This document shows, piece after piece, positions 32,524 to 41,593 of a stretch of DNA of 64,000 bases. Within the stretch, counting starts at the first letter, position 1; the number at the start of each line of letters is the position of its first letter. The stretch lies in NCBI GenBank assembly GCA_043827405.1, contig JBDRPD010000054.1:64001-128000 (forward strand), in the 5' to 3' direction. Source of the DNA: Elusimicrobiota bacterium. Lineage in GTDB: Bacteria; Elusimicrobiota; Elusimicrobia; UBA1565. Below the pieces are notes generated by a model. The model was not told where the DNA came from and did no database searches. It was given only the letters and a program-made list of their open reading frames with translations. The position numbers were made by a program, and so were the translations under genes.

Positions 32524-32717
32524 GCGCTGTGGACTCCCTTTCTCCTGCGCGGCGGCCATCCCGCGCCGCCGAAGGTCTCTCGTCGTTCATGAAAAATGCT
32601 TTAATACACGTCCCCAGGCCATCCTCAGTAATCCGGTCAATCCCGCATACTGCTGCGTAGGCCGCAAACGATGCCGGGGCGCGTATTATCGCCGGAAAAT
32701 CGGTGGAAACCGGGTTT

Positions 32718-33755
32718 ATGACACAGGGCAGAAAGAAAGAGCATCTGAGAATTTGCGCCGAGATGGACGTCGAATTCCAGCATAAAACGACATTGCTGGA
32801 GCATGTCCATCCGGTCCATGCCGCCTTGGCGGAGATCTCAATCGATGAGATAGACACCGGGACGAGCTTCATGGGACGGAAGCTGCGCGCGCCGCTGCTG
32901 ATCAGCGCCATGAGCGGCGGGGTTACGCACGCTCGCGACCTCAACCGGGACCTGGCGCGCGCGGCGCAAAAGCTCGGTATCGGTTTCTGTCTGGGCAGCC
33001 AGCGTCCCATGCTGGAAAACCCGAAGCTGATCGGCACCTATCAGGTCCGCCGCTTCGCTCCCGACGTGCCGATTCTGGGAAATATCGGCGTTCAGCAGGC
33101 CGCCGCGGCGAAGCCCAGGGACATCGAGCGGTTGGTGACCTGTATCGAGGCCGACGGTTTGGCGGTGCATCTCAACCCGGCGCAGGAGCTGAGTCAGCTC
33201 GAGGGCGACCGGCGCTTTCCGGACGGCTACCGTACCCTGAAGATTCTCGCCAAGCGCCTGCCCGGCCGGATCATGGTCAAGGAGACCGGCTGCGGCATCT
33301 CGCGCGAGGTCGCCCGGAAGCTTAAGCGGGCCGGCATCCGGGTCGTGGATACGGCCGGCGCCGGCGGCACCTCGTGGACCCGGGTGGAGCATCTGCGCAA
33401 CGGAGTGAAGCCCGCGGCGCGCGGCTGGCTCGACGAATGGGGCATCCCGACGGCGGCGTCCCTCATGGACGTGGCCCCGCTGGGGCTTAAGGTCGCGGCA
33501 TCGGGCGGGCTGCGCAGCGGCTACGACGCGGCCAAGTGTCTGATGCTGGGCGCCGACGTCTGCGGCATGGCGCTGCCGGTCCTGCGCGCCTATATGCGGG
33601 GAGGTTATCCCGCCGTACTCGCTTTTTTCGAACAGGTCCGGCGCGAGCTCAAGACCGTCATGCTGCTGGTCGGCGCCAAGGATATCCCCTCGCTCAAGAA
33701 ACATAAGCCGGTAATCACTGGAGAACTCGCGGAATGGGCAACCCGGACAAGATAA
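32718..33755 (+). CDS. fni: Type 2 (FMN-dependent) isopentenyl-diphosphate delta-isomerase
   Basis: RKKEHL, AMSGG, GSQR, HLNPAQE, VKETGCG, GAGGTSW, SGGLR. Confidence 0.95.
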   Translation: MTQGRKKEHLRICAEMDVEFQHKTTLLEHVHPVHAALAEISIDEIDTGTSFMGRKLRAPLLISAMSGGVTHARDLNRDLARAAQKLGIGFCLGSQRPMLENPKLIGTYQVRRFAPDVPILGNIGVQQAAAAKPRDIERLVTCIEADGLAVHLNPAQELSQLEGDRRFPDGYRTLKILAKRLPGRIMVKETGCGISREVARKLKRAGIRVVDTAGAGGTSWTRVEHLRNGVKPAARGWLDEWGIPTAASLMDVAPLGLKVAASGGLRSGYDAAKCLMLGADVCGMALPVLRAYMRGGYPAVLAFFEQVRRELKTVMLLVGAKDIPSLKKHKPVITGELAEWATRTR

Positions 33756-35098
33756 ACCAGCCGAACGATCCGAAAGAAGAGAAGCCGCAGCATCGCACCT
33801 CGCGGCTGTCCGGCTTCTATAAGCTCGACGTCTCGGAACGGCTGGACAAGCTCGACGAATGGCTTCCCCTTTCAAACGAGGAAAAGTGGATGCTCAAGAA
33901 GGAGACGCTGTCGCTCGAGAAGGCCAATATGATGATCGAGAACGTCATCGGCATTTTCGGGCTTCCCCTCGGTCTCGCGGTCAACTTTCGCATCAACGGC
34001 AAGGACTACGTCATCCCGATGGCGGTGGAAGAGACGTCGATCGTCGCCGCCGCCGGCAATATGGCCAAGCTTATCCGCGAGAACGGCGATCTCACGGCCT
34101 CCTCCAAGCGCGCCATAATGGAAGGGCAGATTCAGCTGTTCAACGTCGACCGTATCGAGACCGCCGTCAAGAAGATTGAGAAGGCGAAGGAACGGCTCCT
34201 GCGGGTAGCCAACCAGCAGGACCGGATGCTGGTCCGGCTGGGCGGCGGGGCCAAGGATCTTTACTGCCGCAAGATCTCCACCGAAAGCGGCCCCATGCTC
34301 ATCGTCCATCTGGCCGTCGCGGTGGTCGACGCCATGGGCGCCAACGCCGTCAACACCATGGTGGAGACGCTGGGACCCATTATCGCGGAGATCGCACAGG
34401 GAGAGCTGCTGTGTCAGATCATCACCAACCTCTGCGATAAGTCGCTGATCCAGGCACGTTTCGAGATCGGCGTCGACTGTCTCGCGAAGGGGGATTTCTC
34501 CGGGCTGCAGGTCGCGGAGCGGATCGTGAAGGAGTATCACTTCGCCGACGCCGACCCTTACCGCGCCGCGACGCATAACAAGGGCGTCATGAACGGTATC
34601 GACGGGATCGTCATCGCCACCGGCAACGACTGGCGCGCCGTCGAGGCGGCCGCCCACGCCTACGCCGCCCGTACCGGCCGCTATCGGTCCCTGACCAAGT
34701 ATCGCATCGAGGATAATAAGCTGATCGGTGAGATTGAGCTGCCGCTGGCGGTCGGCGTGGTCGGCGGCGTGACCAGGCTGCATCCTGCCGTCGAGATCCT
34801 GCTCAAGATTCTAGGCAAGCCGTCGCGGCGCGAGCTGGCGGAGATTATGGCGGCCGCCGGTCTGGTGCAGAACTTCGCCGCGGTGCGCACTTTGGTGACC
34901 GAGGGAATCCAGCGCGGGCATATGACTCTGCATGCCCGCAATGTGGCCTACTTCGCCGGCGCCATCGGCGAGATGGCGGTTCATGTGGCCAATCAGATGG
35001 AGCGGGAAGGGCTGATCCGCTTCGACCGGGCCAAGGAGATTCTGAAGAATCTTCTCGTGCACCGGCAGAACGAGAACGGCGACGGAGAGGAAGCGTAG
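33734..35098 (+). CDS. mvaA: Class II HMG-CoA reductase
   Basis: ENVIG, MAVEETSIVAA, DAMGAN, ATHNKG, GNDWRA, GIQRGHMTLH. Confidence 0.95.
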   Translation: MGNPDKINQPNDPKEEKPQHRTSRLSGFYKLDVSERLDKLDEWLPLSNEEKWMLKKETLSLEKANMMIENVIGIFGLPLGLAVNFRINGKDYVIPMAVEETSIVAAAGNMAKLIRENGDLTASSKRAIMEGQIQLFNVDRIETAVKKIEKAKERLLRVANQQDRMLVRLGGGAKDLYCRKISTESGPMLIVHLAVAVVDAMGANAVNTMVETLGPIIAEIAQGELLCQIITNLCDKSLIQARFEIGVDCLAKGDFSGLQVAERIVKEYHFADADPYRAATHNKGVMNGIDGIVIATGNDWRAVEAAAHAYAARTGRYRSLTKYRIEDNKLIGEIELPLAVGVVGGVTRLHPAVEILLKILGKPSRRELAEIMAAAGLVQNFAAVRTLVTEGIQRGHMTLHARNVAYFAGAIGEMAVHVANQMEREGLIRFDRAKEILKNLLVHRQNENGDGEEA

Positions 35099-35109
35099 AC
35101 TCAAGCCGT

Positions 35110-36084
35110 ATGAAGACCGCAACCGAGAAGGCTCCGTCAAAGCTGATTCTGCTCGGCGAGCATGCCGTGGTCTACGGGCAGCCGGCGATCGCGGTGCCGC
35201 TGCGCGAGCCCTCCGCTGAAGCCGTGGTGACCGAGACGAGCGAATCCGAGCCGGTCGCCGTCGAGCTGAAGGATTTCGGTCTCCGTTGGACGCGAGGCGA
35301 GAAGGCGGAGGCCGAGGAAATCCTTCCGTTCGCGCATATCGTCCGGTCCTGCATCGAAGACGGCGGCCGCATGCCGGGCCGCGGCTGGAAGCTCTCGATC
35401 CGATCGGACATTCCCATCGGCTGCGGTCTGGGCAGCGGCGCCGCTGTTTCCACCGCCGCGCTGCGGGCCATCCATCGTTTTTTCGGCTTCGCTATCGCGC
35501 CGCGAGAGCTGTCCGCGCTCGTCTACGAGACGGAGCGGATGCTGCACGGCACGCCGAGCGGCATCGATAATACCGTTATCGCGACCGAGCGTCCCGTTCT
35601 GTTCCGTAAGGGAGAGGACGGGGAATTTATCGAGCCGCCGGCGGCTCCCATCTTTTTCGTCATCGGCTATACGGGCAAGCGGCATAAGACGTTCGCGGTC
35701 GTGACCGAGGTCGCGGAGGCGCGCGCGGCGGATCCCGAGACCTACGACGGGATATTCGCGGACATCGGCGAGATAACCCGTAAAGGCGCCGCCGCCTTCC
35801 GGGCCGGCGCGTTTGCCGAGCTCGGCCGGCTCATGGACGAGAATCACCGGCTGCTGGAAAGGCTCGGCGTTTCCTCACCCGAGCTCGAGCGCATGGTCCA
35901 GGCGGCGCAGGCCGCGGGGGCGCTCGGCGCCAAGCTGAGCGGCGCCGGCCGGGGCGGCTGCATGGTGGCGCTGGCGCCGGACGCCGTCGTCGCCGGCAAG
36001 CTTGAAGAGGCGCTGCGCCGGGCCGGTTCGGTTATGACCGTGACGACGGGAATTCTGCGGCGCAAGGCGGCGGCATGCGGGTGA
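35110..36084 (+). CDS. mvk: Mevalonate kinase
   Basis: LLGEHAVVYG, PIGCGLGSGAA, HGTPSGID, KLSGAGRGGC (GHMP kinase motifs). Confidence 0.93.
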   Translation: MKTATEKAPSKLILLGEHAVVYGQPAIAVPLREPSAEAVVTETSESEPVAVELKDFGLRWTRGEKAEAEEILPFAHIVRSCIEDGGRMPGRGWKLSIRSDIPIGCGLGSGAAVSTAALRAIHRFFGFAIAPRELSALVYETERMLHGTPSGIDNTVIATERPVLFRKGEDGEFIEPPAAPIFFVIGYTGKRHKTFAVVTEVAEARAADPETYDGIFADIGEITRKGAAAFRAGAFAELGRLMDENHRLLERLGVSSPELERMVQAAQAAGALGAKLSGAGRGGCMVALAPDAVVAGKLEEALRRAGSVMTVTTGILRRKAAACG

Positions 36085-36629
36085 TCGTCGGGCTCTCCGG
36101 CGCGTCGGGCGTGGTGATCGGCGTCCGCTTGGTCGAAGAGCTGCTGGCCCGCAGCTGCGAGGTGCATGCGGTCGTCACCTCTTCGGCCTGGGACGTCCTG
36201 CGCCACGAGATGGGGGCGGACTTCAAGTTTCCCGCCGGGGCCGCGCTCTACGAGCAGAAAGACGCGAAAGCGCCGTTCAACAGCAGCTCTTTTCGCGCCG
36301 CCGCGATGGTCGTGGCGCCCTGCTCCATGAAGTCGCTGTCCGCGATCGCCGCCGGCTACGCCGATAATATTTTAGTGCGGGCGGCGGACGGCATGCTGCG
36401 TACCGGCGGGAAGCTGATCCTGGTTCCCCGGGAGACGCCGCTGTCGCTCTCGGCGCTGGAAAATATGGCGTCCTTGCGGCGTGACGGCGCCCTGATCGCT
36501 CCGCCGATGGCGGCGTACTACCACGGACCCAAGACCGTCGACGATATGACGAATTTCTTCGTCGGCAAGCTGCTCGATCTGCTGGGTCTCGAAAATGATC
36601 TGTACCGGCGCTGGAGCGGTGGAGCATAG
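36075..36629 (+). CDS. ubiX: Flavin prenyltransferase (prFMN synthase)
   Basis: GLSGASG, APCSMKSL, VPRETPL, PPMAAYY. Confidence 0.93.
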   Translation: MRVIVGLSGASGVVIGVRLVEELLARSCEVHAVVTSSAWDVLRHEMGADFKFPAGAALYEQKDAKAPFNSSSFRAAAMVVAPCSMKSLSAIAAGYADNILVRAADGMLRTGGKLILVPRETPLSLSALENMASLRRDGALIAPPMAAYYHGPKTVDDMTNFFVGKLLDLLGLENDLYRRWSGGA

Positions 36630-36630
36630 A

Positions 36631-37905
36631 ATGGATATCGGCTCGATTATCAAGATGTTCCAGGACGCCGGCGAGCTCACGACGGTGGGGGAAGAGCTCG
36701 ACCCCGTGCTCAAGGCGGCGGCAGCGATCCGCGCCGCCGAACCCGCGCCCGTGCTCCTGGATAACGTGCGAGGCAGCCGGATCCTGGCCAATATCATGCC
36801 GACCCGGGACGCGCTGGCGCGGCTGCTCGGGGTCGATCCCGCCCGGTTTTTGCCCGAGCTGGCGGCCAAGCTGGAGGGGGGCGGCGCGGGCTGTGTCCGG
36901 CGCGACGCCGTCTTCGGCGACGAGGAGATTCCGCTGGCCGAGCTGGAGCGGCTGCCCTTTTTGACCTACTACAGCGTGGACGGCGGGCCCTATCTGACGG
37001 CGGGCGTATGGGTCGTTCGCGATCCCCGGCATGGAGTGAATCTTTCCTATCACCGCATGATGCGGACCGGCCCGGGACGCGGTACCGTGCGCGTTGTGGA
37101 GCGGCGCGGCACCGATACCGCGATGAAGAACAGCGGCGGCACGCTGGAGGCGGCGATCTGTATCGGCGCTCCCGCGCCGGTGCTGTTCGCGGCGGCGCTG
37201 TCGCCCGCGCCCGACATCAACGAGCTGGACATCGCCGCGCGCTTCGGCGAGCTGGAGCTGGTCCGCTGCAAAACGATCGACGTGGAGGTCCCCGCTTCCT
37301 GCCAGCTGGTGATCGAGGGCCGGTTCACCGGGGAGACCGGGGCTGAAGGTCCCTTCGTGGATATCACGGGGACGGTAGATGTTGTCCGGCAGCAGCCGGT
37401 GTTCGAAATTACGCGGGCGGCTCGCCGCAGGGATGCCGTGCTCTACGATATCGTACCGGGACGGTCCGATCACCGGACGCTGATGGGGATTCCCAAAGAG
37501 CTGGATATTTACCGCGAAGTTTCCAAGGTCTGCCGCTGTCTCGACGTATCCATCACGCCGGGCGGCGCTTCCTGGCTGCACGCGGTCATCCGCATCGCCA
37601 AAGAAAAAGGGCAGGACGGACGCGCGGCGCTGGCGGCGGCGTTCGCCGCGCACCGCTCGCTCAAACACTGCGTTGTCGTCGATGAAGACATCGACATCCG
37701 CAATCCCGCCGCGGTCGAATGGGCGCTGGCGACGCGGTTCCAGGCCAATACCGACCTGCTGCTGCTCGACGATCAGCCGGGCAGCTCGCTTGATCCCTCC
37801 GTGCATCACGAGAGCGGCAAGGGCAGCCGGGGCTCGAAGCTCGGGCTCGACGCCACGATTCGCGAGGGCGGCGAACCGTCGCTGTTCAAGAAGATAACCG
37901 AGTGA
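36631..37905 (+). CDS. UbiD-family decarboxylase; by context trans-anhydromevalonate 5-phosphate decarboxylase
   Basis: DGGPY, SYHR, EGPFVDITG, VVVDEDIDI, VEWALATR, LDP; lies inside the mevalonate operon. Confidence 0.85.
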   Translation: MDIGSIIKMFQDAGELTTVGEELDPVLKAAAAIRAAEPAPVLLDNVRGSRILANIMPTRDALARLLGVDPARFLPELAAKLEGGGAGCVRRDAVFGDEEIPLAELERLPFLTYYSVDGGPYLTAGVWVVRDPRHGVNLSYHRMMRTGPGRGTVRVVERRGTDTAMKNSGGTLEAAICIGAPAPVLFAAALSPAPDINELDIAARFGELELVRCKTIDVEVPASCQLVIEGRFTGETGAEGPFVDITGTVDVVRQQPVFEITRAARRRDAVLYDIVPGRSDHRTLMGIPKELDIYREVSKVCRCLDVSITPGGASWLHAVIRIAKEKGQDGRAALAAAFAAHRSLKHCVVVDEDIDIRNPAAVEWALATRFQANTDLLLLDDQPGSSLDPSVHHESGKGSRGSKLGLDATIREGGEPSLFKKITE

Positions 37906-39143
37906 ACCTGTCCGCGGAAGAACAAGATGTCCTCGACGGCAAGCAGGGCGCCGGGGCCGCCAAGGCCATGGAGATTCTGCGGGCGCTGGGCCGCATCAGC
38001 GGGGCGCCGGATATGGTCCGGGTCGGCTCAGTGCAGGTCTCGGGCGTAAGCTACAAGAATATCGGCGAGCATGGGCTCGCCTTTCTCAATGAGTGGGCGG
38101 CCCAAGGCTCCAAGGCGGCGGTACCCGCTTTCATGAATCCCGGCGGCGCCGACCGCAAGCTGTGGAAGGCCTTGGGCTTTCCGGCGGATTTCGTCGAAAA
38201 ACAGGCGCAGGTGGTCGCGGCGCTGGAGGGCCTGGGCGTGCAGCCGACCTTGACCTGCACGCCGTACCATATCGGCATCAAGCCGCAGCCCGGCGAGCAT
38301 GTCGCCTGGGCGGAGTCCTCGGCGGTCGTGTTTGCGAACTCGGTGCTCGGGGCCCGGACCAACCGGGAGGGCGGACCGTCGGCGATCGCCGCGGCGCTGA
38401 CCGGGCGGACGCCCCGGCACGGCCTGCATACCGACGAGGGGCGGCGGCCTACCCGCGTCGTTCAGGTGAAATGCGGGGTCAAGACGAGCGCCGATGCCGG
38501 CGCGCTCGGCTACCTGATCGGCCGCGTCCTGGCGCAGGACAGCAAGGGCGGAATCCCGTATATCGCGGGGGTCGAGCCGCCGGAAGGAGCGGCGCGGCTG
38601 GCTTGGCTTAAAGCGCTCGGCGCCGGGATGGCCGCTTCCGGTTCGGTAGGCCTGTATCACCTGGAGGGCGTGACGCCCGAAGCGGCCGCCGCGGGGGCCG
38701 GGTTCGCCGACGCCGCGCCGGAGCGTACGGAGATCGTCTCGCTGGCGGAAGGCTATCGTAATCTGAACGCCAAACAGGGCGCTATCGACGTGGTGGCCCT
38801 CGGCTGCCCGCATGCCTCGCCCGAAGAGCTGGAGCATGTTGTGCGGCTGCTGCGCGGCCGCCGGACCAAGCTCCCGCTGTGGATTTTCGTGGCGGAAGGC
38901 GTGCGCCGGGAGGCGCAGGCCGCGGGCGTCGCGGCGGAGCTCGAGAAGTCGGGAGCGGTCCTGCTCGCCGACACCTGCCTGGTGGTGGCGCCGCTCAAGG
39001 AGCTCGGGATCCGGGGCGCGGTGACCAACTCGGCCAAGATGGCATTTTATCTGCCGTCGCATCACGGCGTAGGCGTGCGCTTCGGCTCGACGGAAGAAGG
39101 CGTTGAAACCGCGGTCGCCGGGGAGTGGAAATACGATGCCTGA
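37902..39143 (+). CDS. Aconitase X catalytic (large) subunit; by context phosphomevalonate dehydratase large subunit
   Basis: SGVSYKNIG, TLTCTPY, WAESSAVVFANSVLGARTNREGG, LGCPH, DTC; GTGA overlap with the ubiD-like gene. Confidence 0.88.
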   Translation: MNLSAEEQDVLDGKQGAGAAKAMEILRALGRISGAPDMVRVGSVQVSGVSYKNIGEHGLAFLNEWAAQGSKAAVPAFMNPGGADRKLWKALGFPADFVEKQAQVVAALEGLGVQPTLTCTPYHIGIKPQPGEHVAWAESSAVVFANSVLGARTNREGGPSAIAAALTGRTPRHGLHTDEGRRPTRVVQVKCGVKTSADAGALGYLIGRVLAQDSKGGIPYIAGVEPPEGAARLAWLKALGAGMAASGSVGLYHLEGVTPEAAAAGAGFADAAPERTEIVSLAEGYRNLNAKQGAIDVVALGCPHASPEELEHVVRLLRGRRTKLPLWIFVAEGVRREAQAAGVAAELEKSGAVLLADTCLVVAPLKELGIRGAVTNSAKMAFYLPSHHGVGVRFGSTEEGVETAVAGEWKYDA

Positions 39144-39534
39144 GAAGCGGCTGGAGGGGCGGGTGATCTTCGGCGGCGCCGCCGCGGGCCGCGTCTTGAA
39201 GTCCGAGCAGCCTTTGGGCTTTTTCGGCCATATCGATCCCGAGACCGGCGTTTACCGGGAAGCGGGGCATCCGCTGGACGGCCGGCTGCTCAGCGGCCGG
39301 GTGCTGGTCTTTCCGCGGGGCAAAGGCAGCACGGTGGGCTCCTACATCATCTACGCGCTGCGCAAGACCGGCAAGGCGCCCGCGGCGATGATCATCGGCG
39401 AATGCGATACCATCGTCGCCGTCGGCGCCATCATCGGCGAGATCCCCGCGCTGGACAGCGTCGACCTTTCATGCCTCAAGGACGGCGACGCGGTGCGGGT
39501 GCGGGACGGGGAGGTTTTCATTGAGCAAGCTTAG
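39136..39534 (+). CDS. Aconitase X swivel (small) subunit (DUF126); phosphomevalonate dehydratase small subunit
   Basis: IDPETG...HPL.G, FPRGKGSTVGSY, APAA. Confidence 0.88.
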   Translation: MPEKRLEGRVIFGGAAAGRVLKSEQPLGFFGHIDPETGVYREAGHPLDGRLLSGRVLVFPRGKGSTVGSYIIYALRKTGKAPAAMIIGECDTIVAVGAIIGEIPALDSVDLSCLKDGDAVRVRDGEVFIEQA

Positions 39535-40315
39535 CGTCTTCGTCAAGCTGGGCGGGTCGTTTATCACCGACAAGAATGTGGCCGACAGCCTGGCCGGGCC
39601 GCGCATTGAGACCGCCGCGCGCATGATCGGCGAGGCGCTGGGGCAGAGCGAAATGTCCTTGGTGCTCGGCCACGGCGCCGGCTCGTACGGCCACATCCTG
39701 GCGCAGAAGTACGATGCCGTGCGGGGCGTGCATCCCGAGTTGGGCTGGGAAGGCTACTACAAGATCCGCGAGTCGATGACCGAGATGAATTTGCGTTTCG
39801 TGCGCCACTGCGGCGCCGGCGGGCTGCATCCCGTGACGATCTCGCCGCATGCCGTGGCGGCGGCGGCGGACGGCCGGCTGGAGCGCATCGATACGCGCAA
39901 TATCTCCGAGCTGCTTAAGCAAGGGCAGATTCCGCTGCTGCACGGCGATATCGTCCCCGACCGCGTGCGCGGCTTCACTATAGCCTCTACCGAAGCCCTG
40001 CTCGCGGGGCTGGCCGAGCATATGCGCTTCGACCGGGTGGTGATGATCAGCGATACCGTCGGCGTGCTTGACGAGAAGGGCCGGACGATCGAGATGCTCG
40101 ACGACGGCGGGTTCGCCGCGGCCGCGGAGCATATCGGCGGAGCCGGCGCGCCCGACGTTACCGGCGGGATGCGCCGGAAGGTGGAGCAGCTCTTTTCGCT
40201 GATCCGCGCCGGCCGTATCGGCGAGGCGCGTATTACCACCTGCGCTGAAGAGCCCGAGAACCTGCGGCGGGCGATCCTCGGCGACGGCGGCGGCGGAACG
40301 CTGCTGCAGGCCTAA
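39521..40315 (+). CDS. ipk: Isopentenyl phosphate kinase
   Basis: VKLGGSFITDK, HGAGSYGH, HGD, DVTGGMRRK (IPK signatures of the amino acid kinase family); TTG start with ggaggt SD. Confidence 0.9.
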   Translation: MSKLSVFVKLGGSFITDKNVADSLAGPRIETAARMIGEALGQSEMSLVLGHGAGSYGHILAQKYDAVRGVHPELGWEGYYKIRESMTEMNLRFVRHCGAGGLHPVTISPHAVAAAADGRLERIDTRNISELLKQGQIPLLHGDIVPDRVRGFTIASTEALLAGLAEHMRFDRVVMISDTVGVLDEKGRTIEMLDDGGFAAAAEHIGGAGAPDVTGGMRRKVEQLFSLIRAGRIGEARITTCAEEPENLRRAILGDGGGGTLLQA

Positions 40316-40326
40316 CGGAGGAGAAT

Positions 40327-40749
40327 ATGCCCTGTCTTGAGATCACCCTGCCGAAGACCGACCGCGAGACCAAGGCGAAACTCGCGGACTGCCTGACCGA
40401 GGCCTTCGCGAGCAGCACCCTGTTCGGCAAGGAGATATTCGGCGTGCGGTTCTTCGAGTACGGTCCCGGCGAGGCGGCGGTCGGCGGCCGGCTGGTGGAC
40501 GGCGATGAAAAGAGCCCCTATCTGCACGCCCTGCTGTACTGTCCCCGGATTACGCGCTCGACCAAACAGAAGCTGGCGGAAGCCCTCACGGAAGCTTTTG
40601 TTCGGGGTACGGGCCGGGAGGACTGGAGGCCGGTTATCCATATCTGCGAGCACCCCTACGACAATGTCGCGGTGGAGGGGCGGGTCTTGTCCGAGGCCTT
40701 CGAGGAGTGCGCGAAGAAAAGCTTCTACTACGAGCTGCCCAAGGATTGA
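40327..40749 (+). CDS. Tautomerase superfamily protein with two fused beta-alpha-beta units
   Basis: N-terminal Met-Pro; repeated (E/S)TKxKLAxxLTEAF; NVAVEG. Confidence 0.75.
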   Translation: MPCLEITLPKTDRETKAKLADCLTEAFASSTLFGKEIFGVRFFEYGPGEAAVGGRLVDGDEKSPYLHALLYCPRITRSTKQKLAEALTEAFVRGTGREDWRPVIHICEHPYDNVAVEGRVLSEAFEECAKKSFYYELPKD

Positions 40750-40750
40750 A

Positions 40751-41593
40751 ATGTCCGACGCCTTCGCGCCCGGAACCCTGCGGCGCCTTGTGCTGGGACG
40801 TACCGTCAGCGCACTACAGAGCGGCGCCCTGCGTCCCATCCCGACCGGAAGTGAGCTTGTCGCACAGGACGGCGTCGAATTCGTCGTGCGCATTTTCACC
40901 AACCTCGCCCGGAAGGAGACGCACCGGAAGGGGCGGGACAACAAGAACCCGTTTTTACCGCCGGAACAGGACCTGACGGTTGCCGGCGTCTCCGCTGCGC
41001 ATTTTTGCATTCTTAACAAGTTTAATGTCTTCGCTCATCACCTGCTCATCGTCACCCGGGAGTTCGAGGAACAGGAGCGCCTGCTGACGGCGGCGGACTG
41101 CGCGGCGCTGCTGCGCTGTATGGCGGAATATGAAGCGCTCGGTTTCTATAACGGCGGCGAGACCGCCGGCGCGAGCGAGCGGCACAAGCATCTGCAGCTG
41201 GTGCCGCTGCCGCTGACGACGCGCGGGCCGTCGGTGCCGATCGAGGCCGCGCTTGCAGGAGCGGAATTCCGCCACGGCATCGGGATGTCGGTCCGGCTGC
41301 CGTTCCGGCATGCGCTGGCCGCCGTGGAGCCGCGGTGGTCTGCGGACCGGATGCTGGAAGCTTATCACGGCCTGCTCAACGCGGTCGGGGTCGACGGGGC
41401 GGCGCCCTACAACCTGCTCATGACCCGGCGCTGGATGCTCGCGGTGCCGCGGGCGGCGGAGAAATTCGGGTCGGTATCGATCAATGCCCTCGGCTTCGCG
41501 GGCTCCCTGCTCGTGCGCAACGCCGCTGAGCTGGCCAAGCTCAAGGAGCTCGGCCCGATGAACGTGCTAAAGAGCGTCGGCTGTCCGCGCTGA
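40751..41593 (+). CDS. ATP adenylyltransferase / Ap4A phosphorylase II
   Basis: NPFLP, LNKF, FYNGG..AGASERHKHLQ (HxHxQ), YNLL, INALGFAG. Confidence 0.88.
   Translation: MSDAFAPGTLRRLVLGRTVSALQSGALRPIPTGSELVAQDGVEFVVRIFTNLARKETHRKGRDNKNPFLPPEQDLTVAGVSAAHFCILNKFNVFAHHLLIVTREFEEQERLLTAADCAALLRCMAEYEALGFYNGGETAGASERHKHLQLVPLPLTTRGPSVPIEAALAGAEFRHGIGMSVRLPFRHALAAVEPRWSADRMLEAYHGLLNAVGVDGAAPYNLLMTRRWMLAVPRAAEKFGSVSINALGFAGSLLVRNAAELAKLKELGPMNVLKSVGCPR

Follow-up and report, generated by a model that had tools for sequence, protein, structure and literature searches.

A predicted archaeal-type mevalonate pathway operon in an uncultured Elusimicrobiota bacterium

The archaeal mevalonate pathway is reportedly present in Ca. 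Promineifilum breve and other Chloroflexota, in work attributed to Kanno et al. 2024. Here, we analysed an eight-gene operon, fni-hmgR-mvk-ubiX-ubiD-acnX-L-acnX-S-ipk, of an uncultured groundwater bacterium of the phylum Elusimicrobiota (genome G000; 4.33 Mb, 108 contigs, 97.97% complete, 0.48% contamination). The operon lies in a stretch of 64,000 nt (G000:C54:64001–128000), hereafter the window, and all gene coordinates are window positions. Compared with the pathway of Aeropyrum pernix, Methanosarcina mazei and Thermococcus kodakarensis, as described in the available text of PMC10040528, PMC8184944 and PMC12547664, the operon has the same enzyme set and the same Fe-S and substrate residues. 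Two archaeal contigs (L184 and L197) share its core order, mvk-(ubiX)-ubiD-acnXL-acnXS-ipk. In contrast to the archaeal systems, the host is bacterial, the eight genes form one block that begins with fni and hmgR, and no match to GGGP synthase or DGGGP synthase was found in the genome. The pathway products are therefore presumably bacterial polyprenols rather than ether lipids; UppS and two trans-prenyltransferases were encoded.

Chloroflexota clusters share with this operon a bacterial host and ubiX-ubiD-acnXL-acnXS-ipk synteny, with AcnX-L 48–55% and UbiD 43–48% identical. The Chloroflexota genomes checked likewise encode an archaeal-type HMG-CoA synthase and a class II HMG-CoA reductase (HMGR). 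The systems differ in phylum, in that KSB1 rather than Chloroflexota was the sister group, and in that fni, hmgR and usually mvk lie outside the Chloroflexota clusters. Classical bacterial mevalonate operons, according to the available text of PMC6107057 and PMC13001223, are likewise operon-borne, patchily distributed and tend to exclude the methylerythritol phosphate (MEP) pathway, but use phosphomevalonate kinase and diphosphomevalonate decarboxylase, neither of which was found in G000. Among bacteria, the available text of PMC13001223 names only Chloroflexota for the archaeal route and lists two cultured Elusimicrobiota as MEP users. That of PMC6107057 names Chloroflexota for a related MPD/IPK route, and KSB1 entries occur in its supplement in trees of PMVK and other classical-route enzymes. 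The available portions of PMC13001223, PMC6107057, PMC11052028 and PMC12547664 contain no Elusimicrobiota case, and no report of the route in Elusimicrobiota or KSB1 was found in literature covered mostly at title and abstract level, Kanno et al. 2024 (which may list other phyla) lying outside that coverage. By its sequence, the operon represents a known pathway in a new phylum, with KSB1 indicated as another.

All eight open reading frames (ORFs) were without internal stop codons and were spaced, from fni to ipk, by −22, +11, −10, +1, −4, −8 and −14 nt:

32718..33755, + strand: fni, type 2 isopentenyl-diphosphate isomerase (IDI-2), 345 aa; TIGR02151, 345.2 bits (cut-off 281.3); alternative GTG start at 32703
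33734..35098, + strand: hmgR, class II HMGR, 454 aa; TIGR00532, 401 bits (cut-off 260); top solved-structure relatives are class II enzymes
35110..36084, + strand: mvk, mevalonate kinase, 324 aa; TIGR00549, 245.8 bits (cut-off 163); top PDB matches are mevalonate kinases 6MDE/4HAC, 146 bits
36075..36629, + strand: ubiX, flavin prenyltransferase (prenyl-FMN synthase), 184 aa; TIGR00421, 201.5 bits (cut-off 108.9)
36631..37905, + strand: ubiD-family candidate anhydromevalonate phosphate decarboxylase (AMPD), 424 aa; TIGR00148, 301.8 bits (cut-off 245); alternative start at 36595
37902..39143, + strand: AcnX large subunit (AcnX-L), candidate large subunit of phosphomevalonate dehydratase (PMDh-L), 413 aa; PF04412, 457 bits
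39136..39534, + strand: AcnX small (swivel) subunit (AcnX-S), candidate PMDh-S, 132 aa; PF01989, 104 bits
39521..40315, + strand: ipk, isopentenyl phosphate kinase (IPK), 264 aa; NF040647, 146.9 bits (cut-off 120); top PDB matches are IPKs (3K4O, 99 bits), with the KLGGS, HGAGSYGH and DVTGGM motifs aligning with 3K4O

Six of the proteins exceeded curated NCBIfam cut-offs, the AcnX pair passed Pfam, and each gene was present in one copy in the genome. Coordinates, spacings and family scores agree with the eight overlapping or abutting intact genes of a preliminary description of this DNA.

With a probability of roughly 0.9, we assign the operon as the route of this bacterium to isopentenyl diphosphate (IPP) as well as dimethylallyl diphosphate (DMAPP) via the archaeal (trans-anhydromevalonate) mevalonate pathway, based on its genes, protein families, catalytic residues, phylogenetic placement, co-occurrence and the loss of MEP genes. 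By homology to the Aeropyrum, Methanosarcina and Thermococcus enzymes, HMGR would reduce HMG-CoA to mevalonate and MVK would phosphorylate it to mevalonate 5-phosphate, which the two-subunit [4Fe-4S] AcnX would dehydrate to trans-anhydromevalonate 5-phosphate. Using the prenyl-FMN that UbiX supplies, UbiD would decarboxylate this to isopentenyl phosphate, which IPK would convert to IPP and IDI-2 further to DMAPP, at a cost of two ATP instead of three. Every lower-pathway feature that can be tested in the sequence matches the archaeal pathway, and residues, trees and gene set support the pathway type proposed earlier. A natural bacterial operon that encodes a two-ATP route in eight translationally coupled genes could serve isoprenoid engineering in E. 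coli at low oxygen as a ready-made part (compare PMC12547664).

The archaeal PMDh is a two-subunit AcnX of type IIb that binds [4Fe-4S] by C110, C283 and C342 (T. kodakarensis numbering) and lacks the site-C cysteine, according to the available text of PMC10040528. AcnX-L had counterparts of these three cysteines (C119, C302 and C359) and a valine at the site-C position. Its top PDB match was the Thermococcus enzyme TkAcnX (7CNR, 303 bits; 201–206 bits for the Agrobacterium hydroxyproline dehydratase AtAcnX), and AcnX-S likewise matched 7CNR chain B with 142 bits (AtAcnX, 66). The mevalonate 5-phosphate-binding residues of TkAcnX given in the available text of PMC8184944 are G48, V49, S50, N53, N79, E129, S130, S131, K361 and Y365 of the large and S62, T63, V64 and L27 of the small subunit. 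Thirteen of these 14 were identical in the G000 proteins (AcnX-L G48-V49-S50, N53, N79, E138-S139-S140, K379 and Y383; AcnX-S S65-T66-V67). Ala47 of TkAcnX is Ser47 in AcnX-L, a serine shared with 11 of 18 Chloroflexota rows. The set SG[VI]SN...C...ESS...C...C...K...Y was common to AcnX-L of all 11 sampled relatives and of Chloroflexota. Asn53 and the small-subunit STV occurred in 11/11 relatives versus 0/42 non-syntenic bacterial AcnX, around whose loci no mevalonate genes were found.

In a tree of 30 hand-picked AcnX-L rows (IQ-TREE, LG+G4, no mixture model), AcnX-L sided with Thermococcus PMDh and further archaeal rows (100/99). It shared a clade with Chloroflexota proteins, one of Lokiarchaeota and that of the archaeal contig L197 (96/97), and had KSB1 as its sister (100/98). 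An approximately unbiased (AU) test gave p=0.038 against a grouping of Elusimicrobiota with Chloroflexota AcnX-L. A 66-row AcnX tree agreed near the tips and was weak at depth. Four AcnX-L proteins of the PMDh clade (P0122, P0123, P0130 and P0142; 541–564 aa) had C-terminal extensions, possibly from a fusion of large to small subunit that reverses the type I order.

Neither enzyme of the classical route was found: a search of the 98% complete genome gave no diphosphomevalonate decarboxylase, and no phosphomevalonate kinase was found among its four GHMP-kinase matches. These were the operon MVK, an IspE-like ORF, and a sugar-kinase-like and a homoserine-kinase-like ORF, the latter pair being labelled by eye on the basis of context. 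Both enzymes, previously noted as absent from the operon, were not found elsewhere in the genome either. The genome also encoded dsrA and dsrB above cut-off (G000:C105:40919–52762), in keeping with anaerobic life and an Fe-S AcnX of a type that is oxygen-sensitive (available text of PMC10040528). Genes resembling dsrD, dsrC and dsrMKJOP, named by eye, follow dsrAB in this region of dissimilatory sulfite reduction; Elusimicrobia DsrAB are already mentioned in the available text of PMC10504309.

Among 41 genomes of the same family and order, AcnX, HMGR and UbiD were present in exactly the same nine. AcnX-L and IPK exceeded their cut-offs in the same nine of 401 genomes of the phylum, all within the order, and in none of the 341 genomes outside it. 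The union of carriers comprised 12 genomes of one order, G000 and 11 others, with an identical eight-gene order, differing flanks and 51–76% operon protein identity to G000. Two loci titled Elusimicrobiota (L001 and L002) had all eight genes in the same order and were excluded from the carrier counts because they can duplicate counted genomes. Six genomes of one other family (G395, G362, G162, G390, G356 and G257) encoded IPK-like kinases of 92–114 bits (cut-off 120) and neither AcnX nor HMGR.

In G000, dxr, ispF, ispG and ispH were not matched, with controls detected as expected (ispD was not searched), and dxs gave only partial matches below cut-off. On contig C8, rpsB-tsf-pyrH-frr-uppS-cdsA-rseP were contiguous, with cdsA ending ~55 nt before rseP and dxr, which relatives have between these two genes, missing. 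Two carriers had the arrangement cdsA-[operon]-dxr-rseP; in these (L117, G025:C62; L119, G039:C81) the operon is divergent from dxr, adjoining the gene it can replace. The IspE-like ORF (C93:35714–36610; L284:2715–3611), at the usual site before spoVG-glmU-prs, scored 101 bits (cut-off 138.7) on a model passed by 37 of the 41 genomes; the three genomes without any match were all carriers. It is open, its conserved N-terminal residues are gone, and the PAKVN lysine, kept in 9/9 aligned relatives, is lost; it is either an MEP remnant or a pseudo-enzyme.

Missing dxr was observed in 5/9 carriers versus 2/32 non-carriers and in all three further carriers (8/12 in total), and missing ispG in 5/9 versus 1/32. 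An HMG-CoA synthase of archaeal type, accompanied by archaeal thiolase and DUF35, occurred in 5/9 carriers, 0/32 non-carriers and 3/3 further carriers (8/12). The synthase was scored with TIGR00748, PF01154 being too insensitive and giving FabH-like false matches. Fisher tests gave p=0.003 for dxr, p=0.001 for ispG and p=0.0002 for the synthase, values that overstate the association because related genomes are not independent. Gene content indicates a switch from the MEP to the archaeal mevalonate pathway caught in progress within one order, visible because close relatives still use MEP. Close genomes were found in every state (MEP only, both pathways, archaeal mevalonate only, a decaying operon), which allows the old question of what makes bacteria exchange one isoprenoid pathway for another, and how they do so, to be tested by comparison.

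Several observations weigh against the assignment. In four of the 12 carriers, dxr (and ispG) is retained; one of these, G022, had split HMGR and IDI-2 and an internal stop in UbiD, reflecting either decay or sequence error. The best PDB match of UbiD was another UbiD-family decarboxylase (6H6V, 210 bits), with no AMPD structure among the matches, and its assignment comes from trees and gene context. Leu27 of TkAcnX is Phe30 in AcnX-S (Phe also in 6/65 metagenome and 1/17 Chloroflexota rows), and TkAcnX itself was inactive according to the available text of PMC8184944. Deep branches were weakly resolved and most archaeal rows unlabelled, since names could be assigned to only 7 of the 30 clusters looked up. 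A language-model atlas, which does not discriminate, placed AcnX-L nearest clusters dominated by Pseudomonadota/Bacillota. Finally, HMG-CoA synthase, archaeal thiolase and DUF35 all went undetected in G000 (tblastn at E<=1; profiles, all six frames), which leaves the pathway without a proven input.

The preliminary description had called the pathway complete from HMG-CoA onward. This held for the lower route, but no HMG-CoA synthase was found in G000, and the upper pathway from acetyl-CoA was likewise not detected, perhaps through loss or an assembly gap. Carriers without the archaeal-type synthase were G000, G022, G036 and G039; G000 and G036 lacked both MEP markers as well. In G008, the synthase trio follows a block syntenic with C39 of G000, where G000 has HMG-CoA lyase (372.6 bits, cut-off 246) and 30 kb more contig. 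In G036, a run of genes for carboxyltransferase, hydratase, biotin carboxylase and carrier is not followed by the trio, which in the congeneric G025 comes next, ~8 kb from the operon. Two carriers (L127, G005:C120; L128, G008:C41) had a further HMG-CoA synthase-thiolase-DUF35 trio of a diverged type, 56–58% identical to the first type.

HMG-CoA in G000 may come from leucine or isovalerate breakdown, a reading that we hold tentatively. The carboxyltransferase-hydratase genes of C39 (133840–136285) and G036 are presumably those of the leucine (Liu) route to HMG-CoA, as judged from context. A second carboxyltransferase type (57–62% identity) was matched in 6/9 carriers and 0/32 non-carriers, and the available text of PMC12979851 proposes that leucine feeds mevalonate in an archaeon. 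Against this, no candidate Liu-route gene apart from the lyase passed a specific model, G000 had one biotin carboxylase only and none adjoining the carboxyltransferase, the lyase competes for HMG-CoA, and the carboxyltransferase occurred in 36/41 genomes, carriers and non-carriers alike. A synthase hidden in an assembly gap is possible and somewhat doubtful, the use of scavenged mevalonate is unlikely, and some other source of HMG-CoA would be surprising.

An alternative is that the same lower pathway is fed only by environmental mevalonate, with the class II HMGR acting oxidatively and HMG-CoA lyase burning the surplus. The missing synthase, the high-scoring lyase and the 'degradative' label of the HMGR family model would fit this, but HMGR was fixed inside the biosynthetic operon in 12/12 genomes, 8/12 carriers have a synthase, no conserved transporter adjoins the operon, and the gene for the lyase is located in another block. 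We therefore regard exclusive feeding by mevalonate as decidedly unlikely.

That the AcnX/UbiD pair is only located among mevalonate genes and in fact acts on a different acid, be it hydroxyproline, a quinone precursor or an aromatic or furan acid, is very improbable. AcnX of the hydroxyproline dehydratase type is of the same fold family and differs in binding residues, cluster ligands and the 100/99 branch. Its residue set (Asp203, Ile206, Trp35, Thr72 and the [2Fe-2S] ligands Cys508/Cys510) was missing, with S47, S50, F30, V67 and the single Cys359 instead, and AcnX-L scored 285 of 700 bits on the corresponding model, below cut-off. The AU test rejected a grouping of AcnX-L with three unlabelled Asp-signature AcnX (p=1.4e-7), rows chosen after viewing a 322-row FastTree and not characterised enzymes; AcnX thus does not belong with proteins of hydroxyproline-dehydratase signature.

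UbiD scored below cut-off on models for VdcC, E. coli UbiD and menaquinone biosynthesis (139/650, 115/788 and 107/496 bits, respectively). It had the motif EGPFVDIT, with Asp where aromatic-acid and quinone enzymes have the second Glu of EGPFGE; its clade had EGPF[VIL]D[LI]T versus EG/D-x-x-x-E in four outgroups. In a tree of 53 rows, with 25 UbiDs flanking AcnX in metagenome loci and no characterised AMPD among the rows, UbiD of Elusimicrobiota grouped with KSB1 (100) and then Chloroflexota (98), nested within the 25 AcnX-adjacent UbiDs and apart from four plasmid UbiDs, one of them a VdcC. UbiD was thus not placed with aromatic-acid decarboxylases. Three of 80 metagenome loci were checked and had archaeal markers such as RpoD, L18e, RpoF, Trm1 and GGGP synthase; the others are presumed archaeal. 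Judged by its Pfam domains, P0392 (616 aa) fuses UbiD with UbiX.

Among named homologues, those closest to AcnX-L, UbiD and HMGR came from Elusimicrobiota (55–74%) and one Planctomycetota-labelled contig, followed by KSB1 and then Anaerolineae; the KSB1 and Planctomycetota evidence consists of protein names only. HMGR was 59–64% identical to KSB1, 49–52% to Chloroflexota, 45–49% to two archaeal cluster copies and 41–49% to plasmid-borne class II enzymes. KSB1 was again the sister (99/94), as for AcnX and UbiD, suggesting that the operon travelled whole; the deeper origin of HMGR was not resolved. The class II HMGR had been taken earlier as a sign of a bacterial–archaeal mosaic, a view that we abandon because two archaeal contigs have class II HMGR within the same type of cluster and the KSB1 sister is common to all three proteins. 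Chloroflexi HMGR-II is placed near archaea in the available text of PMC6107057. A Patescibacteria-labelled HMGR (P0491) was sister to the Elusimicrobiota HMGR clade (100/99). Five Elusimicrobiota outside the order (L149–L152 and L156; G304, G110, G109, G214 and G271) had an HMGR-family gene and no AcnX; as operon relatives these were rejected, with 22–29% identity where alignable (4/5).

In three gene trees (94, 93 and 100/98), G012 of family f1 clustered with G025/G036 of family f2, which, from gene trees, suggests lateral movement inside the order. Three trees placed AcnX-L, UbiD and HMGR (P0029, P0337 and P0469) of the Planctomycetota-labelled contig (1.09 Mb) within the Elusimicrobiota clade, which reflects either onward transfer or a mislabelled bin. 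The history may have comprised an old acquisition shared with KSB1, block movement within one Elusimicrobiota order and then MEP loss in some carriers. An old, mobile diderm-bacterial branch of the archaeal route (Elusimicrobiota, KSB1 and the one Planctomycetota-labelled contig) displacing MEP genome by genome is well supported. Its combination with isoprenoids of G000 and G036 made from leucine/isovalerate-derived HMG-CoA, without entry from acetyl-CoA or pyruvate, is doubtful as a joint claim.

Operon GC (62–69%) and GC3 (0.81–0.87) were similar to flanking genes, and the codon-usage index of the operon genes lay at the 37th–82nd percentile among 2,338 roughly called ORFs. Base and codon composition were host-like. 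The earlier view of an old, assimilated operon is supported, and its diderm, non-Chloroflexota host proved to be an Elusimicrobiota. Identity of flank genes (L001, 53–73%; L002, 41–46%; Chloroflexota loci, 28–57%) was weak as a host test. An assembly chimera or archaeal contamination, which the archaeal-type gene set and a metagenome-assembled genome in 108 contigs might suggest, is refuted by the composition, the relatives with the operon, the low contamination, contig pieces of a possible source run covering the operon at even depth (13–19), a single 8.6-kb piece spanning hmgR to the downstream flank, and near-identical pieces in a second study, one of which joins fni to the gene upstream of it.

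A promoter and terminator scan of the operon region gave nothing above chance level, and two RNA runs yielded only fragments of 30–45 nt. Of the flanking genes named previously, a TolC-type outer-membrane efflux protein and GlnRS were present in the window, but the outer-membrane receptor was not located among the 18 window proteins scanned. Immediately 3' of ipk (40327–41593) lie a tautomerase-family ORF of double length and a gene for an Ap4A phosphorylase. Both, and an upstream glycerol kinase, were rejected as operon parts, as they do not adjoin the operon in relatives. Further downstream, a region of lower GC and increased read depth (43034–43569) contained a short fragment resembling a helix-turn-helix gene also found at C44:13849–14205, and is probably a small mobile remnant.

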